A program made the position numbers and the translations under genes. Below the pieces are notes generated by a model that saw only the letters and a program-made list of their open reading frames with translations, searched no databases and had not been told where the DNA came from. This document shows, in pieces, positions 896 through 34,261 of a DNA stretch of 64,000 nucleotides. Each line of letters begins with the position of its first letter. Positions within the stretch are counted from its first letter, which is position 1. Source of the stretch: an uncultured bacterium (GTDB lineage Bacteria; Verrucomicrobiota; Verrucomicrobiia; Limisphaerales; JACDHS01); assembly GCA_966095605.1 (NCBI GenBank), contig CBHTTJ010000002.1, positions 8,702 through 72,701 of the forward strand. The letters run 5' to 3'.

Positions 896-2167
896 ATGTT
901 TTCCGACCGGCCCCGAATTTTAATTCTCATTACGCGTTGGGTGATCGGCGTTGTTACGCCAATGATTGCGCTCGGCCAGACGAATGTGCCGCTGCCGGCG
1001 TATCACGTTTATATGGGGAATACACATGCACACACGACTTACTCGTGGTCGCATGGAGATCACTTTGAAAAGGAGAAGGGACAAAACGGCGGCGATGCCG
1101 AGGGCAAATCAGAAAAATTAGCCATTTCGACTAACGGCGTTCAATCGGCGCCGAAAGGAAAAATCGTTCGCAAGGATTGGCAGAAACACCAGGGCTCTCC
1201 GGCGAAGCACTACGCTTTAGCGAAAGAAAATGGATACGACTTTTACGTCACAAGTGATCATTCCCAGGAAGTGGCGTTTAGCCCGACGAGTGCAACCAAC
1301 GTCGCCTGGACGGCGACAAAGCAAGAAGCTACCCAGGCGACAGACAAGGATTTCGTTGCCCTGGCGGGATATGAACATTCCGAGAACAACGGACCAGCAG
1401 GCAAGGGGCATTTGAATATTATCAATAGCTCGGAATATCTGAATGCGATGAGTCCGGGCGTTGACATTCCTGCCCTGTATCGATGGCTGAAAACAGTGAA
1501 ACCAAATGGAGTCGGTCCGGTGGTCGCTACGTTTAATCATCCGAGTCCGCGGCAGTACGACGATTGGGGAAATCGCGACGCGGAAATTACCGACATCATC
1601 ACCATGTTCGAAGTGATCAACTCCAACACTAGCCTACATGCAGGAGCATTCGTGACGGCGTTGGACAAAGGATGGAAGGTTTCGCCAGTTTGCGGGAACG
1701 ATAACCATGGATTCTGGGGTATCATCAATCACACTTCGCGCACGGCCGTGTTGGCGACGAATCTGAGCAAGGCGTCAATACTCGACGCCATGAAGCATCG
1801 CCGCACCTACGCCACGTTGGACCGGAACCTCGATTGTCGTTATAGCGTGAACGGGGCGATCATGGGTTCCACGCTAAAACCGACGGATGATTTTCAATTC
1901 GAAATTGTCATCAGTGATCCGGACACCAAAGAGCCCAGGGATAAGATCACAAAGATTGAGATCGTTAAGGACGGTGGAGGTCTCGTGAAGAGGTTTGAAC
2001 CTTTGCCCGCTCACACGATCGTCTGGAAGCCGCTCATTCACGACACGACCAACAAATATTTCTTCGTGAGAGTCTGGAGCGCAGGCGGTGCCGATGCGGC
2101 GAAGGCCAGGCCGAACGATCCCGTCGCATGGCTGGCTCCAGTTTGGACAGGACGCCAGGCTGAGTGA
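896..2167 (+). CDS. secreted PHP-domain metal-dependent phosphoesterase
   Basis: 423 aa with a hydrophobic N-terminus. PHP metal-ligand motifs are present: GNTHAHTTYS (HxH), YVTSDHS, GYEHSEN, FNHP and CGNDNHG. Confidence 0.7.
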   Translation: MFSDRPRILILITRWVIGVVTPMIALGQTNVPLPAYHVYMGNTHAHTTYSWSHGDHFEKEKGQNGGDAEGKSEKLAISTNGVQSAPKGKIVRKDWQKHQGSPAKHYALAKENGYDFYVTSDHSQEVAFSPTSATNVAWTATKQEATQATDKDFVALAGYEHSENNGPAGKGHLNIINSSEYLNAMSPGVDIPALYRWLKTVKPNGVGPVVATFNHPSPRQYDDWGNRDAEITDIITMFEVINSNTSLHAGAFVTALDKGWKVSPVCGNDNHGFWGIINHTSRTAVLATNLSKASILDAMKHRRTYATLDRNLDCRYSVNGAIMGSTLKPTDDFQFEIVISDPDTKEPRDKITKIEIVKDGGGLVKRFEPLPAHTIVWKPLIHDTTNKYFFVRVWSAGGADAAKARPNDPVAWLAPVWTGRQAE

Positions 2168-2183
2168 CGTTGGCGGTCTCGCA

Positions 2184-4484
<2,301 letters not shown>

Positions 4485-4518
4485 CTATGCGCGGCTTTTC
4501 GTTTTACCCTGTGGCCGC

Positions 4519-6324
4519 TTGAAAACGTTACATCGCTTTCCCTCGATTGCTCTCTCGGCGGTTTTATTCCTCGCCTTTGCCGGAACGTTGTCCGCAAAGA
4601 AATTGAATCTACCGCTGCGGTCAGCGGACGCGCTCAGTGGAAGTGCTTTTGCAAAAAGGGTCAGCGCACTGCCCTTGAAAGAACGGGAGGAAGCGGTGTG
4701 GAAGGAAGCGATGGCAGGGAACGTGCCGGAATTTCTGCGTGAGCTCGTTCCCGTTACCGTGAGCGAAACAACGGAAGGACGTGCGAACACCATTGTCTAT
4801 TATGTAACACCCGATTACCTGGCAATTGGCGCAAATGATGATTATTTCCCGATGCCTTTAACCCCCTTCACCGCCCAAAAAATTGCAGATCAACTTGGCT
4901 GTTCGCTGCCGACGCCGAAGATGGTGAATCAGATTTACAGCAATGCCCTCGTGAAACTGACCCCCAGCCCAATGACGCCGGGAGCGGCCATGGTGACGAT
5001 GCCTGCATTTATCGAACATAATGAAACAGTGAGAAAACAACGTGCAGAAACACTGGCAAAGTTTCCGCTCGGTTCGCTGACTGCGGGGCATAAGAAAGAC
5101 GTGGTGATTTCCAATAAACTCCTGGCGGGAGTTGGTAAAGTCGCGATCTATGGCTGGCACAAGCCGGATGGTTTGCCAATCCAGCCTGTCTATACCGGAC
5201 ACACCGCAGCGTGGGCTGATTATAGTCACGGGATTCGATTGGTGGACAGCGAGGTGAAAGTGAATGGAAAGACCAGCACACTGGAAAAGGTCTTGGGCGA
5301 TGCCGCCTTCGCGAGTTTGTTGAGCAACGAAGGACCGATGAAGCAGCCGCGTTACGTGTTGACAGAGTTTCCCGAGGAGAAAGGGAAGATCCCAGTGAAA
5401 GCGGGCACGAACGCCGTTGCGATCGCAAGCAAAGGCAGCTTCCCTAATGAAACGGTGAAGGAAATGAAATTTGAGCCCGAAGTGAGAATTCAGATCAATG
5501 CGCCGGCGACGTTAGATCCAAAGAAGAAGCTCCTGCTGATTTTCTTTACGTTACCAAATGGAAACACCATTGAGCAAAGCGTCGGCAAAGAACTAAAAGC
5601 TGGGGACGATTGGCACTTCAACATTCAACATATTGGTGCTCAGACGCGTTTTCTCCGGGAGAAACTTCCCGACCAGAATATTGTCGTCGCTTATCTCGAA
5701 AGCGGACTGAAGAGTTGGCCAGCGTGGCGCAAGAAACATGGTGATGCGGATTTGCCTAAAGTTATCGAGTTGGTGAAGAGTCAGTTCAAAGGTTTCGAAA
5801 CCAGCATTGTCCTGAGCGGACATAGTGGTGGTGGAAGCTTTATTTTTGGGTATCTCAATACACAGGAGAAAATTCCGGCTGAAATCGAGCGCATTGCTTT
5901 TCTTGATTCCAATTACGCCTACGATAGCGCGCTACATCACGCAAAGTTCACAGCCTGGTTAAAAGCTTCGGATCGACATGCCCTCCAGATTCTTGCTTAT
6001 CATGATGATATTGCGCTGCTCGATGGCAAAACATTTGTCAGCGCTGCCGGCGGAACGTGGGGGAAAAGTCATGCGATGCTTGCGGACTTTGAAAAGGATT
6101 TTTCCCTCGAGAAAAAGGTGGCCGGCAATTTGGAAAAGGACTCAGCACTCAACGGCCGCTTGCAATTCCTCCTGTTGGAAAATCCGGAGAAGAAGATTTT
6201 TCACACGGTGCAGGTGGAAAAGAATGGATTCATTCAGGTCATGCTTGCCGCAACCCCGCTGGAAGAAAAAGATTACCAATATTTTGGGGAGCGAGCGTAC
6301 TGGAAATTCATCGGCAAAGAGTGA
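4519..6324 (+). CDS. secreted two-domain protein: unknown N-terminal domain plus alpha/beta-hydrolase-like C-terminal half
   Basis: 601 aa, TTG start, signal peptide MKTLHRFPSIALSAVLFLAFAGTLSA. The first ~280 aa are paralogous to the N-terminus of the 50208..53294 product. The C-terminal half carries the nucleophile-elbow motif LSGHSGGGSF (GxSxG). Confidence 0.7.
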   Translation: MKTLHRFPSIALSAVLFLAFAGTLSAKKLNLPLRSADALSGSAFAKRVSALPLKEREEAVWKEAMAGNVPEFLRELVPVTVSETTEGRANTIVYYVTPDYLAIGANDDYFPMPLTPFTAQKIADQLGCSLPTPKMVNQIYSNALVKLTPSPMTPGAAMVTMPAFIEHNETVRKQRAETLAKFPLGSLTAGHKKDVVISNKLLAGVGKVAIYGWHKPDGLPIQPVYTGHTAAWADYSHGIRLVDSEVKVNGKTSTLEKVLGDAAFASLLSNEGPMKQPRYVLTEFPEEKGKIPVKAGTNAVAIASKGSFPNETVKEMKFEPEVRIQINAPATLDPKKKLLLIFFTLPNGNTIEQSVGKELKAGDDWHFNIQHIGAQTRFLREKLPDQNIVVAYLESGLKSWPAWRKKHGDADLPKVIELVKSQFKGFETSIVLSGHSGGGSFIFGYLNTQEKIPAEIERIAFLDSNYAYDSALHHAKFTAWLKASDRHALQILAYHDDIALLDGKTFVSAAGGTWGKSHAMLADFEKDFSLEKKVAGNLEKDSALNGRLQFLLLENPEKKIFHTVQVEKNGFIQVMLAATPLEEKDYQYFGERAYWKFIGKE

Positions 6325-30891: not shown

Positions 30892-32880
30892 ATGAACAAA
30901 AATTTGCGCCGGGTCCGAACTGTTCTTCTGTCGCTTGCGGCTGTCTGCGTGGCGACCTCTCTTGGAGCGGCGGATGCGAAAAAGGGACCGTCTGGGCTGG
31001 TGGCGACGTTTACCAGCGCCGACGGAAAAACCACCGATCTCTGCGTGGTACCGAATCTCGCGCTGTATGTTCAACAAGGAAAAACGCCAAGCCCATTTGT
31101 CCCGGAAGGAAAGTTTACGGCCACCTGGGATGGTTTTATTTCTGTCGATCTTCGAGGCGATTACACATTTCAGGCGGAATTGAACGGGCAGTTGAAGATT
31201 GAAATCGGCACCAACGTTGTCCTGGAAGCCACCGGGAATGACTCTCTTTCGGCGCCAGGCAAATCAATTCGTTTGAGCAAGGGGACGAATGCTTTCAAGG
31301 CAACGTTTACTCCACCGGAAAAGGGGGATGCTTATGTCCGCTTGCGTTGGACTCCGAAAGGAAGCTTTTTGCAACCCGTTCCGCAGGCGGCATTGTCCCA
31401 TGCGGAAACTCCGGAACTGCAGAATGCTTTGAAGCGACATCTCGGACGCGAATTGTTCGTGGAACATCGCTGTGCCAAATGCCACGTGGGTCCGGACGTC
31501 AACGGATCGATTCCCGAACTCGCCATGGACGCGCCCGATCTTGAAAACATTGGTGCGCGCAGAAACTTTGAGTGGTTCATCGGCTGGATTGCGAGTCCAA
31601 AAGGCGTTCGTCCGCAAGCTCGGATGCCGCGGCTTTATCATGGTTGGGACAACACCGGGCAAAATGCCCTCGCCATTTCTGCTTATCTTTCGGGTCTCTC
31701 CATCGTCGATAAATTCGTTCCAAAGAATTTGGAACCTGCCGACGCGCCAGCCGGGAAAAAACTATTTCAAACCCTGAACTGCAAAGCCTGCCATAACGAC
31801 CCGGCGGCCAACGAAAACGATCTCGCCAAAATTTCGCTGAAAACAGTCGCGGTAAAGTTTACGCCAAATTCTTTGGTCGATTTTCTAAAGAAACCAGACG
31901 GCCATTACGCATGGATCCGTATGCCGACCTACAAATTGAGCGATAAGCAGCGCGATCAGCTGGCGGCGTTTCTCTTCGCGAACTCTGAAAAATTGAAAGG
32001 GATTCCGATTCCAACAGACAAAGGCACTCTGGAAAAAGGAAAGGGGCTTGTTCAGACATCAGGCTGTTTGAATTGCCACGCCTTGAATCTTGAAAACAAA
32101 TTTTCCACCAAGGCACTGGCAGACTTGAAAGATTTCAAGACCGGTTGCCTCGCGGAAAATCCGGATCAGACCAAGGCGCCAATTTTCCAATTTGTCGCTG
32201 CGGAACGTGAGGCGTTGCAGGCATTTTTGGAGAGCGATCATTCGTCGTTGGGCCGCCATGTGCCTGCGGAATTCGCCGAACGCCAGACCCGCTTGCTGAA
32301 TTGTCGTAATTGCCATGAAGGACAGATCGAAGGCATTCCGCACTTTGATTTGTTGGGTGGCAAGTTGAAGCCGGAATGGTCTGCGAAATTTATCAGCGGT
32401 GATTTTCCGGAAAAAATGAGGCCATGGCTCGACGCTCAGATGCCGGCGTTTAACAAACGAGCCGAACTTTTGGCCCAGGGACTTTCTGCCCAGAATGGTT
32501 TGCCTCCGCAAACGCCGGTCGAAGCTGCGATTGATGAGGAAGCCGCCAAGGTAGGCAACCGCTTAATTTCCGCACCTCCATTTGGTCTATCCTGTATCCA
32601 ATGTCATTCCGTTGGAACGTTTGCGGCGACACAGGTTTTCGAAGCGCCCGGGGTGAACCTCGCTTTTGCCGGTGAACGGTTGCAGCCGTCTTTCTTCAGA
32701 CGTTGGTTGCGAAATCCGCCACTGGTTGATCCTTCCACCAAGATGCCGGTTTATTTCGACGAAGAAGGGAAGAGTCCTTTGACGGAGATTTACGACGGCG
32801 ACGGCCCAAAGCAGATCAACGCGATCTGGCAGTATTTGCGTCTGGGATCGAAAATGCCTGGGCCGGTGCAGGAGAAATAG
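30892..32880 (+). CDS. exported PA14-domain pentahaem c-type cytochrome
   Basis: Start at ATG 30892 with a signal peptide. PA14-like N-terminus (GKFTATWDGFISVDLRGDYTFQAELNGQLKIEIG). Five CxxCH motifs: CAKCH, CKACH, CLNCH, CRNCH and CIQCH. Confidence 0.8.
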   Translation: MNKNLRRVRTVLLSLAAVCVATSLGAADAKKGPSGLVATFTSADGKTTDLCVVPNLALYVQQGKTPSPFVPEGKFTATWDGFISVDLRGDYTFQAELNGQLKIEIGTNVVLEATGNDSLSAPGKSIRLSKGTNAFKATFTPPEKGDAYVRLRWTPKGSFLQPVPQAALSHAETPELQNALKRHLGRELFVEHRCAKCHVGPDVNGSIPELAMDAPDLENIGARRNFEWFIGWIASPKGVRPQARMPRLYHGWDNTGQNALAISAYLSGLSIVDKFVPKNLEPADAPAGKKLFQTLNCKACHNDPAANENDLAKISLKTVAVKFTPNSLVDFLKKPDGHYAWIRMPTYKLSDKQRDQLAAFLFANSEKLKGIPIPTDKGTLEKGKGLVQTSGCLNCHALNLENKFSTKALADLKDFKTGCLAENPDQTKAPIFQFVAAEREALQAFLESDHSSLGRHVPAEFAERQTRLLNCRNCHEGQIEGIPHFDLLGGKLKPEWSAKFISGDFPEKMRPWLDAQMPAFNKRAELLAQGLSAQNGLPPQTPVEAAIDEEAAKVGNRLISAPPFGLSCIQCHSVGTFAATQVFEAPGVNLAFAGERLQPSFFRRWLRNPPLVDPSTKMPVYFDEEGKSPLTEIYDGDGPKQINAIWQYLRLGSKMPGPVQEK

Positions 32881-32938
32881 CCAAGGACTAAAGGGGCGCG
32901 AACCGTACTGAATTGTTCTGGCTAAACGGCTCCTGTTG

Positions 32939-32963
32939 GAAGTTGAGCCTTGGACTCAACTTC
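32939..32963. terminator. 9-bp stem-loop between convergent genes (possible terminator hairpin, no U-tract)
   Basis: GAAGTTGAG (32939-32947) / CTCAACTTC (32955-32963) with a 7-nt loop. Confidence 0.35.
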
Positions 32964-32998
32964 TCAATCCTGGGTTTGATTTCTCTCCGGGGATGCGC

Positions 32999-33376
32999 TC
33001 AGGCCACGTCGGCGTCAAATTCGTATTGATCGCCCTCCGCCGCGGTCGCGTCATTTTCTTTGGGGGCACCAGCATGAAAGCGCCAGTTGCGGAGCTTGTG
33101 CGTATGAGAGGAGAACTTGTTTTTCTCGTCCTTTTCAGCCACTTCCACCGATACTTCTGGAAAGGATCCCATATTTAGTAATCTGCCGATCGGCAAAAAA
33201 GCCCCCCGGCCGTGATCTTTACCCAGGCGGAGGAAACCGCACGCAATCACTTTACCTTCTGTCGTTTTAACAATGGCAGGCGTATCACTGCCACTGGCAC
33301 AGCAATTACATTTCATACACCTGCATTTTAGCAACGGGTATACCAGTTCAAATCTGCTTCGGATTTCACAACTCAC
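32999..33376 (-). CDS. hypothetical Cys-rich small protein with acidic tail
   Basis: 125-aa ORF with an alternative start at ATG 33316 (MKCNCCASGSD...). No recognisable family. It is the only ORF pointing away from the 41-bp palindrome array, and its coding status is uncertain. Confidence 0.35.
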   Translation of the reverse strand: MSCEIRSRFELVYPLLKCRCMKCNCCASGSDTPAIVKTTEGKVIACGFLRLGKDHGRGAFLPIGRLLNMGSFPEVSVEVAEKDEKNKFSSHTHKLRNWRFHAGAPKENDATAAEGDQYEFDADVA

Positions 33377-33540
33377 TGGTAATCAATTTGTTTTGCAATT
33401 GCGCGAACGTTATTTTCCTTCCTGGCAACAGGAATTCTGTTTGGGGAGGCTTCTCTTTCGCGGAATCGAATTAATAGCCCCGAGAGCGCCTTCTGGAAGA
33501 GGATTTGCCGTCGATTCTGAGATCCCGGAGGGCCCAAAAT

Positions 33541-33868
33541 CGTTTTTTCATCTGAAAACTCGTTTTCGAACGTTCCTTTTTTGATTTTTCATCGAAAAAC
33601 TTATGCAACTACGCTCCTGGATTAGTTTTTCGTTTGAAAAACCGTTTGGAGAGGCCCGCCAAATCATTTTTCATTTGAAAACTTCTGCAGTCGGGCCCCG
33701 AAATCAGTTTTTCATCTGAAAAATCATTTTGGGACCGTCCTTTTTCCGTTTTTCATTTGAAAACTTATCCAGCCATCGTTCTGAATAAGTTTTTCATTTG
33801 AAAAAGCGTTTCAGGACGCTGCTTGGAGAGCTTTTCATTAAAACATACAGTCTTGGGAACTGGAAGGT
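33541..33868. repeat. array of 8 exactly 41-bp-phased units conserving only a TTTTCAYYTGAAAA palindrome
   Basis: The TTTTC of the core starts at 33545, 33586, 33627, 33668, 33709, 33750, 33791 and 33832, with the last copy degenerate. The core is about GTTTTTCATYTGAAAA. The intervening ~24 nt are diverged with only residual similarity (GGGCCC..AAAT / CCTTTTT tails). Confidence 0.9.
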
Positions 33869-34261
33869 CGCTGGTTTTCAAAAGATTGCTTTTTCAACAA
33901 TGTTTTTGGATATCTTTATCTTTTATAGAGAGTTCTAACCGGATTTTTTTCGCTTTCTTCGTTTTTGAGAAATTCCCCGACGGAAAATAGGGGCGATTTT
34001 ACCAATATCTGGGCACTCGCCCACCGGCGAGACAGTGACTGTCTCAGTCGGTGACACTTCCTTAGAGGTGTATCGGGAAAACGCCTACAAATCCGAGAAA
34101 AAGATCCCGGCATAGTCCCTGCTTAAAAGACTCGTCCGCCATGCCTTTCCAAAATGGGAAACGGAAAGGTTTTGTCCTTCGGACATGTTGGTCAGCAGTT
34201 TTGGAAAATAGTCGGGGTTTGTTTCAGGAGAAAAGAAACAAACAGAACTGAGTAAAAACCT

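Follow-up and report, generated by a model that had tools for sequence, protein, structure and literature searches.

Arrays of phased palindromic sites are already known as plasmid centromeres. The F-plasmid centromere sopC is composed of 12 repeats of 43 bp, each with a 16-bp inverted repeat of the form 7+2+7, and its relatives have 3–17 repeats of 43–45 bp; the spacing was read by its authors as four helical turns, with SopB dimers on one face of bent DNA (PMC3177203). Proteins of the ParB family also work outside segregation: in Shigella, the cytidine triphosphate (CTP)-dependent clamp VirB loads upstream of virulence promoters at virS sites, which resemble parS (PMC10770331), and the ParB of Pseudomonas aeruginosa binds many parS-related sites as a nucleoid-associated protein (PMC5961200). 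Here we analyze a 64-kb stretch of DNA from an uncultured member of the Verrucomicrobiota (the window), in which eight 41-bp units, each with a 16-bp palindrome of the same 7+2+7 form, lie upstream of a gene for a 1718-amino acid surface protein. A literature search for the motif of this array returned nothing relevant, and a chromosomal, multi-copy, parS-like version of such arrays in front of giant surface-protein genes is not described.

Anatomy and constraint of the array

The cores of the eight units have the consensus TTTTCAYYTGAAAA, and the full palindrome reads (G/T)TTTTCA-YY-TGAAAA(C/A). Five cores are perfect, two are near-perfect, and one is degenerate (Table 1). Five perfect matches to TTTTCAYYTGAAAA compare with 0.01 expected for the whole window in dinucleotide-preserving shuffles, and none of 100 shuffles contained five or more. 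Autocorrelation of the array reaches 0.58–0.62 at lag 82 and 0.54–0.57 at lag 41, and the linkers fall into two types with identities of 0.48 and 0.39 within types and 0.33 between types (random expectation 0.26). Because lag 82 is the strongest and the linker types alternate, it follows that the array grew as an 82-bp dimer was duplicated. Linkers are found in either orientation, many are self-complementary about their center (e.g., 33764–33790, CTTATCCAG...CTGAATAAG), and the units at the ends of the array are degenerate. The units are too diverged for the array to be reported by Tandem Repeats Finder, and an autocorrelation scan of the whole window found two periodic regions only, both of period 41, the array being one.

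Table 1. Coordinates of the array, its parts, and neighboring features in the window
Feature	Position	Strand	Sequence, basis, or remark
Phased array, eight 41-bp units	33541..33868		Reading in 41-nt rows; autocorrelation
Four 82-bp super-units, alternating A-type and B-type linkers	Starts 33541, 33623, 33705, 33787		Repeat-family search; autocorrelation
Core 1	33545..33558		TTTTCATCTGAAAA, perfect
Core 2	33586..33599		TTTTCATCGAAAAA, 2 mismatches
Core 3	33627..33640		TTTTCGTTTGAAAA, 1 mismatch
Core 4	33668..33681		TTTTCATTTGAAAA, perfect
Core 5	33709..33722		TTTTCATCTGAAAA, perfect
Core 6	33750..33763		TTTTCATTTGAAAA, perfect
Core 7	33791..33804		TTTTCATTTGAAAA, perfect
Core 8	33832..33845		TTTTCATTAAAACA, degenerate, 3 mismatches, in phase
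Vestigial ninth unit	33873..33886		GGTTTTCAAAAGAT, half core at 33875, 2 nt off phase; direct sequence reading
Lineage-specific segment with small gene and array	32873..34176		No counterpart in L139
Small Cys-rich protein gene	32999..33316	-	105 amino acids from Met21 (MKCNCC...); gene callers, homologues; no Pfam family
Promoter-like block of small gene	33330..33405	-	TTGCAAAA ... TGGTATA(C/G)C ... ATG; by-eye comparison, kept in L143–L145
GHL10, Golvesin_C, fn3, Bact_surface_Ig-like secreted surface protein, 1718 amino acids	34262..39418	+	Pfam domains

The core and the linkers differ sharply in conservation. Mean pairwise identity within the window array is 0.82 over the 16 core columns and 0.37 over the 25 linker columns, and a contiguous block that strong arose in fewer than 5 of 100,000 column permutations (p<=5e-5). 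Two further arrays, from a Verrucomicrobiales genome introduced below, give 0.86 versus 0.36 (L024, p<=5e-5) and 0.76 versus 0.38 (L078, p<=1.5e-4). At least 85 linker substitutions have accumulated in the window array without an indel in any of its seven intervals, and the three arrays together comprise 22 consecutive 41-bp intervals with zero indels and at least 85–101 linker substitutions each. This contrast between core and linker and the lack of indels despite so many substitutions support the view that the palindrome and its spacing, and not the unit as a whole, are under selection. Across 24 units, 10 of the 12 specified arm positions are 96–100% identical as T or A, the outermost position of each arm is 88% identical, and there is no compensatory G–C pair. 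With arms that are invariant as T or A and with no compensatory pairs, the constraint therefore falls on duplex-DNA sequence and spacing and not on mere pairing ability, and the invariant arms argue for sequence-specific recognition. In all arrays the AA/TT power peaks at 10.2–10.25 bp (4.1–9.1, compared with a control 95th percentile of 1.1). A period of 10.25 bp is exactly one quarter of the 41-bp unit, and such phasing is a signature of DNA predicted to be intrinsically bent or easily wrapped.

The original prediction, made from the letters of the window, had described eight cores at exact 41-bp steps without indel drift, a palindromic core of about 16 nt kept better than its flanks, and selection on the palindrome and its spacing but not on the unit as a whole. 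The core starts listed in Table 1, the seven exact intervals, the alignment, and the 22 indel-free intervals bear out each of these statements, and the suggestion that the sites share nearly the same face of the helix and wrap DNA gains support from the AA/TT phasing. The linkers were said to retain residual similarity only; they are indeed diverged, but the alternation of two types, together with matches of 0.78–0.81 to some linkers of L024 and L078, reveals more relatedness than that description allowed.

These data bear directly on two other accounts of the array. An ordinary decaying minisatellite without function, in which mutation bias or the manner of its origin would have left the cores conserved, would fit the tandem-duplication origin implied by the 82-bp super-unit, the degenerate terminal units, and the fact that the array is not kept at orthologous loci (see below). 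We consider this account highly improbable: a neutral minisatellite would decay uniformly and accumulate indels, whereas the window array combines the unequal identities of core and linker given above with zero indels despite linker divergence of ~40%, the contiguous 16-column block is significant in all three arrays, and core and phase are kept in paralogous arrays diverged to 81% and in a different genome.

The second account places function at the RNA level, with the array transcribed as a 5' leader or non-coding RNA whose hairpins would serve as terminators or attenuators, as stabilizers, or as a sponge for an RNA-binding protein. Both strands fold far better than shuffles (z = -4.9), the unit has the layout A-tract, hairpin, T-tract, a TAnnTTTG promoter-like element was seen by eye before a similar array in the Bacteroidota contig L126, and a few linkers in L024 and L078 (1–2 per array) pass a terminator scan. 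Equal strong folding of both strands, however, follows automatically from palindromic repeats, the terminator scan gave 0 matches within 33541–33868, and no Rfam family matched there. The arms show no compensatory G–C changes, the core hairpin would have either an impossible 2-nt loop or a weak A–U stem, and RNA hairpins do not need an exact unit length. In both L024 and L078 the promoter-like sites are on the downstream side of the array, and the conserved putative promoter of the small gene next to the window array points away from it. We therefore regard an RNA-level role as very unlikely. The same scan counts led us to reject tandem bidirectional terminators as a general feature of the arrays.

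Dispersal of arrays and their genomic neighbors

We scanned 185,579 species genomes for two cores 31–61 bp apart. The Verrucomicrobiales metagenome-assembled genome RYN_621 has the same core in the same 41-bp phase at two loci, L024 (8–9 units) and L078 (12 units). Positions 1941–2345 of L024 align with 824–422 of L078, inverted and unit for unit, at 80.6% identity over 408 nt, and the flanks are unrelated. L078 contains a second, degenerate partial copy (130–300) that comprises the first 2–3 units, lies ~150 bp beyond the main array, and is 78% identical to L024 1982–2076. A further copy of the L078 array, a partial one with a different left flank, came from a metagenome scan (L125 1–1891; units 7–12, 88% identical); this contig ends inside the array and has an overall GC content of 0.41, so an assembly chimera is possible. 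Since the L024 and L078 arrays are alike and their flanks are not, whole arrays have evidently been duplicated into other intergenic regions and retained there, core and phase intact. The array center flips between TC and GA in both L024 and L078, from which came the idea of crossover sites of a serine recombinase or shufflon-like system; the 27-bp segments are too short for such a system, and there is no recombinase gene nearby.

All three Verrucomicrobial arrays for which the gene-proximal side is known lie upstream of genes for large secreted multidomain proteins: the 1718-amino acid protein of the window, a 1374-amino acid RCC1/Ig-like/fn3 protein (L078), and a PKD/M66-like protein of at least 679 amino acids (L024). 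In L078 a promoter-like TTGACA-16-AATACT lies between array and gene. In L024 an automated promoter scan found none in this interval, an extended -10 element, TGTATAAT, was read by eye at ~2398, and a strong terminator of the upstream gene precedes the array. The exception is L125, whose known side faces a housekeeping gene for an RlmL-like rRNA methyltransferase and whose other side is cut by the end of the contig. Two kinds of regulatory site were considered and set aside: an array of extracytoplasmic function (ECF) sigma or sigma-54 promoters, as no consistent -10 or -12 element was seen by eye at the right distance, and a PEP-CTERM regulatory site, as the downstream proteins have no PEP-CTERM tail.

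At related loci the picture is different. The array is absent from all six that we compared, three of the downstream gene (L139–L141) and three of the small Cys-rich gene (L143–L145). L139 is the closest orthologous locus, and its orthologue of the 1718-amino acid protein is 86% identical, yet the region upstream of that gene has no core and no 41-bp periodicity. Nucleotide homology between the window and L139 ends at the end of a cytochrome c gene (32872) and restarts at 34177, 85 bp before the ATG, so that this break in synteny between close relatives coincides with the segment 32873–34176 that carries the array. Between the same flanks, cytochrome c and the GHL10 surface protein, L139 has a set of four other genes of ~5 kb (972–5942) that encode a GH25/Golvesin_C protein, a ceramidase-like protein, and two small open reading frames (ORFs). 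Absence from every orthologous locus compared is the outcome that the original prediction had linked to a minisatellite; however, as its core and spacing are found again at other loci and in other genomes, the array is no minisatellite decaying at this one site.

This distribution would also suit a dispersed repeat, selfish or neutral, that resembles the BIME/REP, BOX, STAR, or MIRU elements. A 41-nt hairpin unit (TGAAAA, a self-complementary linker, and TTTTCA) would have been multiplied and moved by recombination or transposition without a host function, and the core would serve that process as its recognition or junction sequence. Consistent with such an origin, the array coincides with a break in synteny and is missing from orthologous loci, paralogous copies of entire arrays are found in either orientation at loci that are unrelated and whose flanks do not match, and contigs end in or near arrays (L125, L078, and L013) as they would at multi-copy repeats. 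The linkers, in both orientations and often palindromic about their center, fit as well, and the alternating A and B units recall the alternating REPs of BIME-2. We nevertheless hold this explanation to be doubtful. No RAYT, transposase, or integrase is encoded in the 64 kb, and the array ends show no evident GTAG/CGTC head, terminal inverted repeats, or target duplications. Most REPs occur singly or in pairs and at high copy number, whereas a hidden Markov model (HMM) of the unit found no solitary unit or other copy outside arrays in ~100 kb of this lineage (the window and L139–L141); membership in the REP/BIME families was rejected on the absence of the head, of a Y1 transposase in the window, and of such copies. 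Finally, a hairpin model does not require an exact 41-bp phase, zero indels, or A/T phasing at 10.25 bp.

Arrays with the same core consensus are present in further taxa with periods of 40–43 bp or of 21 bp, which is half of 42. They occur at 41 bp in Fibrobacter intestinalis, Hymenobacter gummosus (two loci), and Labilibaculum, at 21/42 bp in Niastella (at least five loci), at 42–43 bp in other Bacteroidia, and at 40 bp in a Methylococcales contig. A few arrays from the genome scan have periods of 32–36 bp, and a metagenome scan at fixed spacing found further arrays. The arrays of other phyla may belong to one class or may be convergent in origin. That the same core is found at ~41 bp in several phyla hints at a general structural solution of four helical turns combined with 10.25-bp A/T phasing. 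Among 24 array loci no neighboring gene is common to all; those found at more than one locus encode DUF6261 (3 loci, all in Bacteroidota and directly downstream), phage integrase (3), the Por_Secre_tail sorting tail of the type IX secretion system (T9SS) (3), and a sigma-54 activator (2).

Several of these arrays have a distinctive architecture of their own. In two Bacteroidota lineages, 41-bp arrays with TTTTCANNTGAAAA-type cores lie directly upstream of the DUF6261 gene (L097 3370–3620 of Labilibaculum sp. K2S; L126 3553–3800 and L131 2080–2290 of Bacteroidales metagenome contigs), and in L097 a secreted fn3 protein of >1000 amino acids comes after the DUF6261 gene. The 41-bp units of H. gummosus (L110 1040–1260 and L119 5290–5540) consist of TTTTCAATTGAAAA and a GGTAGGnnnCCTACC hairpin; the later units of L119 are AAAAYCAATTGATTYY, in which the T and A arms are swapped and the palindrome is retained, and the L110 array is upstream of a gene for an 887-amino acid glucuronyl esterase secreted by the T9SS. 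In Niastella populi and a Niastella metagenome-assembled genome (L012, L117, L028, L010, L002, and L073), ATTTTCATATGAAAAC alternates with ATTTTCATATGACAG in 21-bp steps to give a 42-bp super-unit, and these arrays form a multi-copy family within one genus (five or six loci at least). Marine metagenome sequences (Ga0115006 and JGI24539) contain 41-bp arrays with the 24-bp palindrome TCAAATTTTCASSTGAAAATTTGA (L121, with two arrays, L128, L129, and L137); the ORFs beside them have no Pfam match.

Half-sites shared with parS and candidate binding proteins

At 49 of the 120 loci recovered by the genome scan the sole site type is GTTTTCACGTGAAAAC, which is CG-centered and occurs in loose clusters of 2–5 sites. 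In all five loci tested (L005, L009, L011, L044, and L063) this site lies directly upstream of a parA-parB operon, with AAA_31/CbiA followed by ParB_N, HTH_ParB, and ParB_C domains. It differs from the canonical TGTTTCACGTGAAACA at the outer two positions of each arm, and it is evidently a parS variant of Elusimicrobia-type and Omnitrophota/Planctomycetia-type lineages. The ParA Pfam scores (217.5 bits) and coordinates of L009 (Eggerthellaceae bin) and L044 (Duodenibacillus bin) are identical to those of L005 (Elusimicrobiales), which is why we consider the contigs of L009 and L044 to be probably mis-binned Elusimicrobia DNA.

Both 6-bp half-sites of the array core are identical to those of GTTTTCACGTGAAAAC, and the central 2 bp alone differ. 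The core also equals the TTTTCACGTGAAAA variant at 12 of 14 positions, and its center is never CG. Arrays with near-canonical centers do occur in other phyla: L015 has four copies of TTTTCACGTGAAAA, L019 has TTTTTACGTGAAAA/TTTTCACATGAAAA at 41 bp, and L017 has GTTATCACGTGAAAAC at 40 bp. A centromere-like role, one of the candidates in the original prediction, therefore stands as a lead by virtue of the parS half-sites and the sopC-like layout, whereas membership among plasmid iterons or classical centromeres does not, as the window has no parA, parB, or rep gene.

One form of this lead is an accessory chromosomal centromere or organizing site, in which the host ParB, whose parS would perhaps have TTTTCA half-sites, binds the arrays for extra loading of ParB and SMC or for nucleoid anchoring, and any effects on genes are incidental. 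The identity of the half-sites with those of a parS variant beside parAB at Elusimicrobia-type and Omnitrophota/Planctomycetia-type loci, the sopC-like tandem geometry, the arrays with near-canonical centers in L015, L019, and L017, and the binding of many parS-related sites by P. aeruginosa ParB (PMC5961200) are all in keeping with it. Chromosomal parS sites, however, are located near parAB or the origin, and the window has neither parAB nor a sustained, origin-like change of skew; the central CG of parS is found in 0 of 24 Verrucomicrobial cores; and the array is missing in the closest relative, which would be odd for a segregation element. We judge an accessory centromere to be quite unlikely. 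A plasmid centromere of the ParB type with parA-parB in cis was rejected, as no ParA or ParB is encoded and the setting is chromosomal (LigA, FolD, TonB, and type II secretion genes).

The reading that we favor, with a confidence midway between doubt and conviction, is that the array is a DNA-level scaffold for the docking and wrapping of a dimeric helix–turn–helix protein and a portable module upstream of promoters. Each 16-bp palindrome would be the site of one dimer. Because the sites are exactly four helical turns apart and the A/T tracts are phased at 10.25 bp, bound dimers would align on one face of the DNA and could bend or wrap it into a higher-order complex. The array belongs to a family dispersed in a Verrucomicrobiales lineage, whose members are copied into intergenic regions as whole modules of ~330–480 bp. 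There they precede the promoters of genes for large secreted or surface proteins, and the assembled complex would most likely modulate transcription or local chromosome structure. As the half-sites match a parS variant and the layout follows sopC, we posit a ParB-family protein as the best candidate for the binder; it could be either the host's own ParB or a paralogue, similar to VirB or KorB, with such sites as its loading points, and we place less confidence in this identity than in the scaffold. From these features we infer that a protein binds, which kind of protein it would be, and what the regulatory outcome might be.

Several observations weigh against the scaffold or against its proposed binder. 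The array is missing from all six related loci examined and is therefore dispensable for the expression of both flanking genes in those relatives. The central CG, invariant in parS, is replaced by TC, TT, GA, or AA in 24 of 24 Verrucomicrobial cores, a replacement that might abolish canonical ParB binding, and canonical TGTTTCACGTGAAACA has no match in the window even at <=3 mismatches. A search with ParB homologues for the parAB and parS of Verrucomicrobia returned only Omnitrophota-type proteins, and the genes of the 64-kb window include no ParA, ParB, or obvious partner beyond ordinary regulators (AraC, response regulator, and ArsR). The association with giant secreted-protein genes is drawn from three arrays, and that of L078 is inverted relative to its gene. 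Unlike an ordinary regulon, no solitary core was found elsewhere by the unit HMM in ~100 kb (the window plus ~40 kb of L139–L141). Lastly, many linkers are self-complementary, which fits a hairpin-based selfish element equally well.

If a ParB-family or other dimeric protein does assemble on the arrays, this would show how Verrucomicrobia control or organize their largest secreted proteins, and with a ParB-family binder the reach of ParB-like CTP switches would extend beyond segregation. We can also imagine a more specific version, which we consider unlikely, in which Verrucomicrobia and perhaps other FCB/PVC phyla use portable, parS-derived arrays of 40–43 bp to load a ParB/VirB-like CTP-switch protein that switches giant surface- or secreted-protein genes, so that a centromere design would have been co-opted as a mobile upstream cassette. 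Were this so, the recurrence of arrays in Fibrobacter, Hymenobacter, Niastella, other Bacteroidota, and Methylococcales would mark a widespread undescribed class of cis-element.

Genomic setting and comparison with described systems

The window is an ordinary piece of Verrucomicrobiota chromosome. Its genes, as assigned by Pfam, include LigA, FolD, an RluA-like pseudouridine synthase, and a TonB/ExbBD iron-uptake cluster, along with regulators of the AraC, ArsR, and response-regulator types; type II secretion/type IV pilus genes, deoxyhypusine synthase, UDG, and three giant Ig/fn3 surface proteins are also encoded. Pfam scans of ~45 window ORFs, which constituted our survey of partner genes, revealed no ParA/ParB, Rep, Cas, transposase, integrase, or RAYT/Y1 transposase in the 64 kb, and searches of the window for tRNA genes and Rfam families were negative. 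Along the window, cumulative GC skew climbs almost continuously, with only a shallow dip at ~33–41 kb and no sustained change of sign.

The start codon of the 1718-amino acid protein gene is 394 bp downstream of the array. On the other side, the small Cys-rich gene is transcribed away from the array and has three homologues with 69–78% identity (L143 6001–6327, L144 3658–3980, and L145 1503–1826); the protein is 105–108 amino acids long across the four loci, and the genomic neighbors of the gene are different at each. A block common to all four loci, TTGGAATTGCAAAA ... GCTGGTATAGCG, precedes the gene and is its putative promoter (Table 1). From the position of this block, the array would be upstream of the small-gene promoter and outside its transcript, and since the gene is real and the promoter-like block is conserved, the intergenic region is truly divergent. 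The original prediction was thus right to recognize a Cys-rich small ORF, which is a conserved gene, but not to place its start at 33376; gene callers begin at Met21 (33316), and the divergent intergenic region accordingly measures 945 bp instead of 885 bp. Its statement that no ORF, cas gene, or mobile-element gene explains the array holds within the window, with the qualification that the array itself is a dispersed element.

Other classes of repeat were excluded on similar grounds. A CRISPR array was rejected, as conservation is limited to 16 nt, cas genes are missing from the window, and the linkers show relatedness both among themselves and with linkers of other arrays; a coding repeat was rejected, as 41 is not divisible by 3 and the ORFs that run across the array are all short. 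Plasmid replication iterons do not match, given that the sites are palindromes at a 41-bp period and no rep gene is present in the window. A plasmid or phage origin found no support either: the window array has no BLAST match in plasmid and phage collections, and a viral scan yielded only a coding repeat.

The second periodic region of the window is a tandem array at 11–320, cut by the start of the window, with a 41-bp period, at least 7.6 copies, and 93% identity. Its unit, CGATTCGTGAACCAAAAGACACCAATCCGGGCAGAAACGAA, holds the palindrome ACGAA-CGA-TTCGT, its AA/TT signal likewise peaks at 10.25 bp, and it lies ~125 bp upstream of an ArsR/HTH_20-type gene (445–864). The unit shows no convincing sequence relationship to that of the 33541–33868 array, and no further copies of the 11–320 array were found in the fetched loci or in viral contigs.

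Among described elements, the BIME-2/REP, BOX, STAR, and MIRU repeats resemble the array in being intergenic, dispersed, and modular, with ~40-bp palindromic units in alternating orientation that are absent at some orthologous loci. Architectural proteins, IHF and gyrase among them, bind BIMEs. In REPs, however, the palindrome is conserved as a whole, whereas in the array the unit length is strict and sequence conservation is confined to a short AT-rich core between variable linkers. Chromosomal parS (the ParB/Spo0J site TGTTNCACGTGAAACA) and GTTTTCACGTGAAAAC are, like the array sites, 16-bp palindromes, and the array shares both half-sites with GTTTTCACGTGAAAAC; in contrast to a phased array before surface-protein genes, parS sites are few in number and lie at uneven intervals close to parAB or oriC. 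The virS sites of Shigella VirB and the OB sites of RK2 KorB are parS-like palindromes that act as loading sites upstream, sometimes far upstream, of the promoters of virulence or surface genes (PMC10770331). These are single plasmid sites and not phased arrays, and no VirB/KorB-like gene was found in the 64-kb window of the array. As for sopC, that centromere lies beside sopAB on plasmids of Enterobacteriaceae and its units are near-identical throughout, whereas the array is a chromosomal element that occurs at several loci per genome, its linkers have diverged, and there is no parAB in the 64 kb; the sites differ as well, TTTTCA-YY-TGAAAA in the array and TGGGACC-RY-GGTCCCA in sopC. The two nevertheless have in common a design of tandem direct repeats, each with a 16-bp 7+2+7 inverted repeat around a non-palindromic central dinucleotide, set about four helical turns apart, which the array realizes as 8–12 units of 41 bp.

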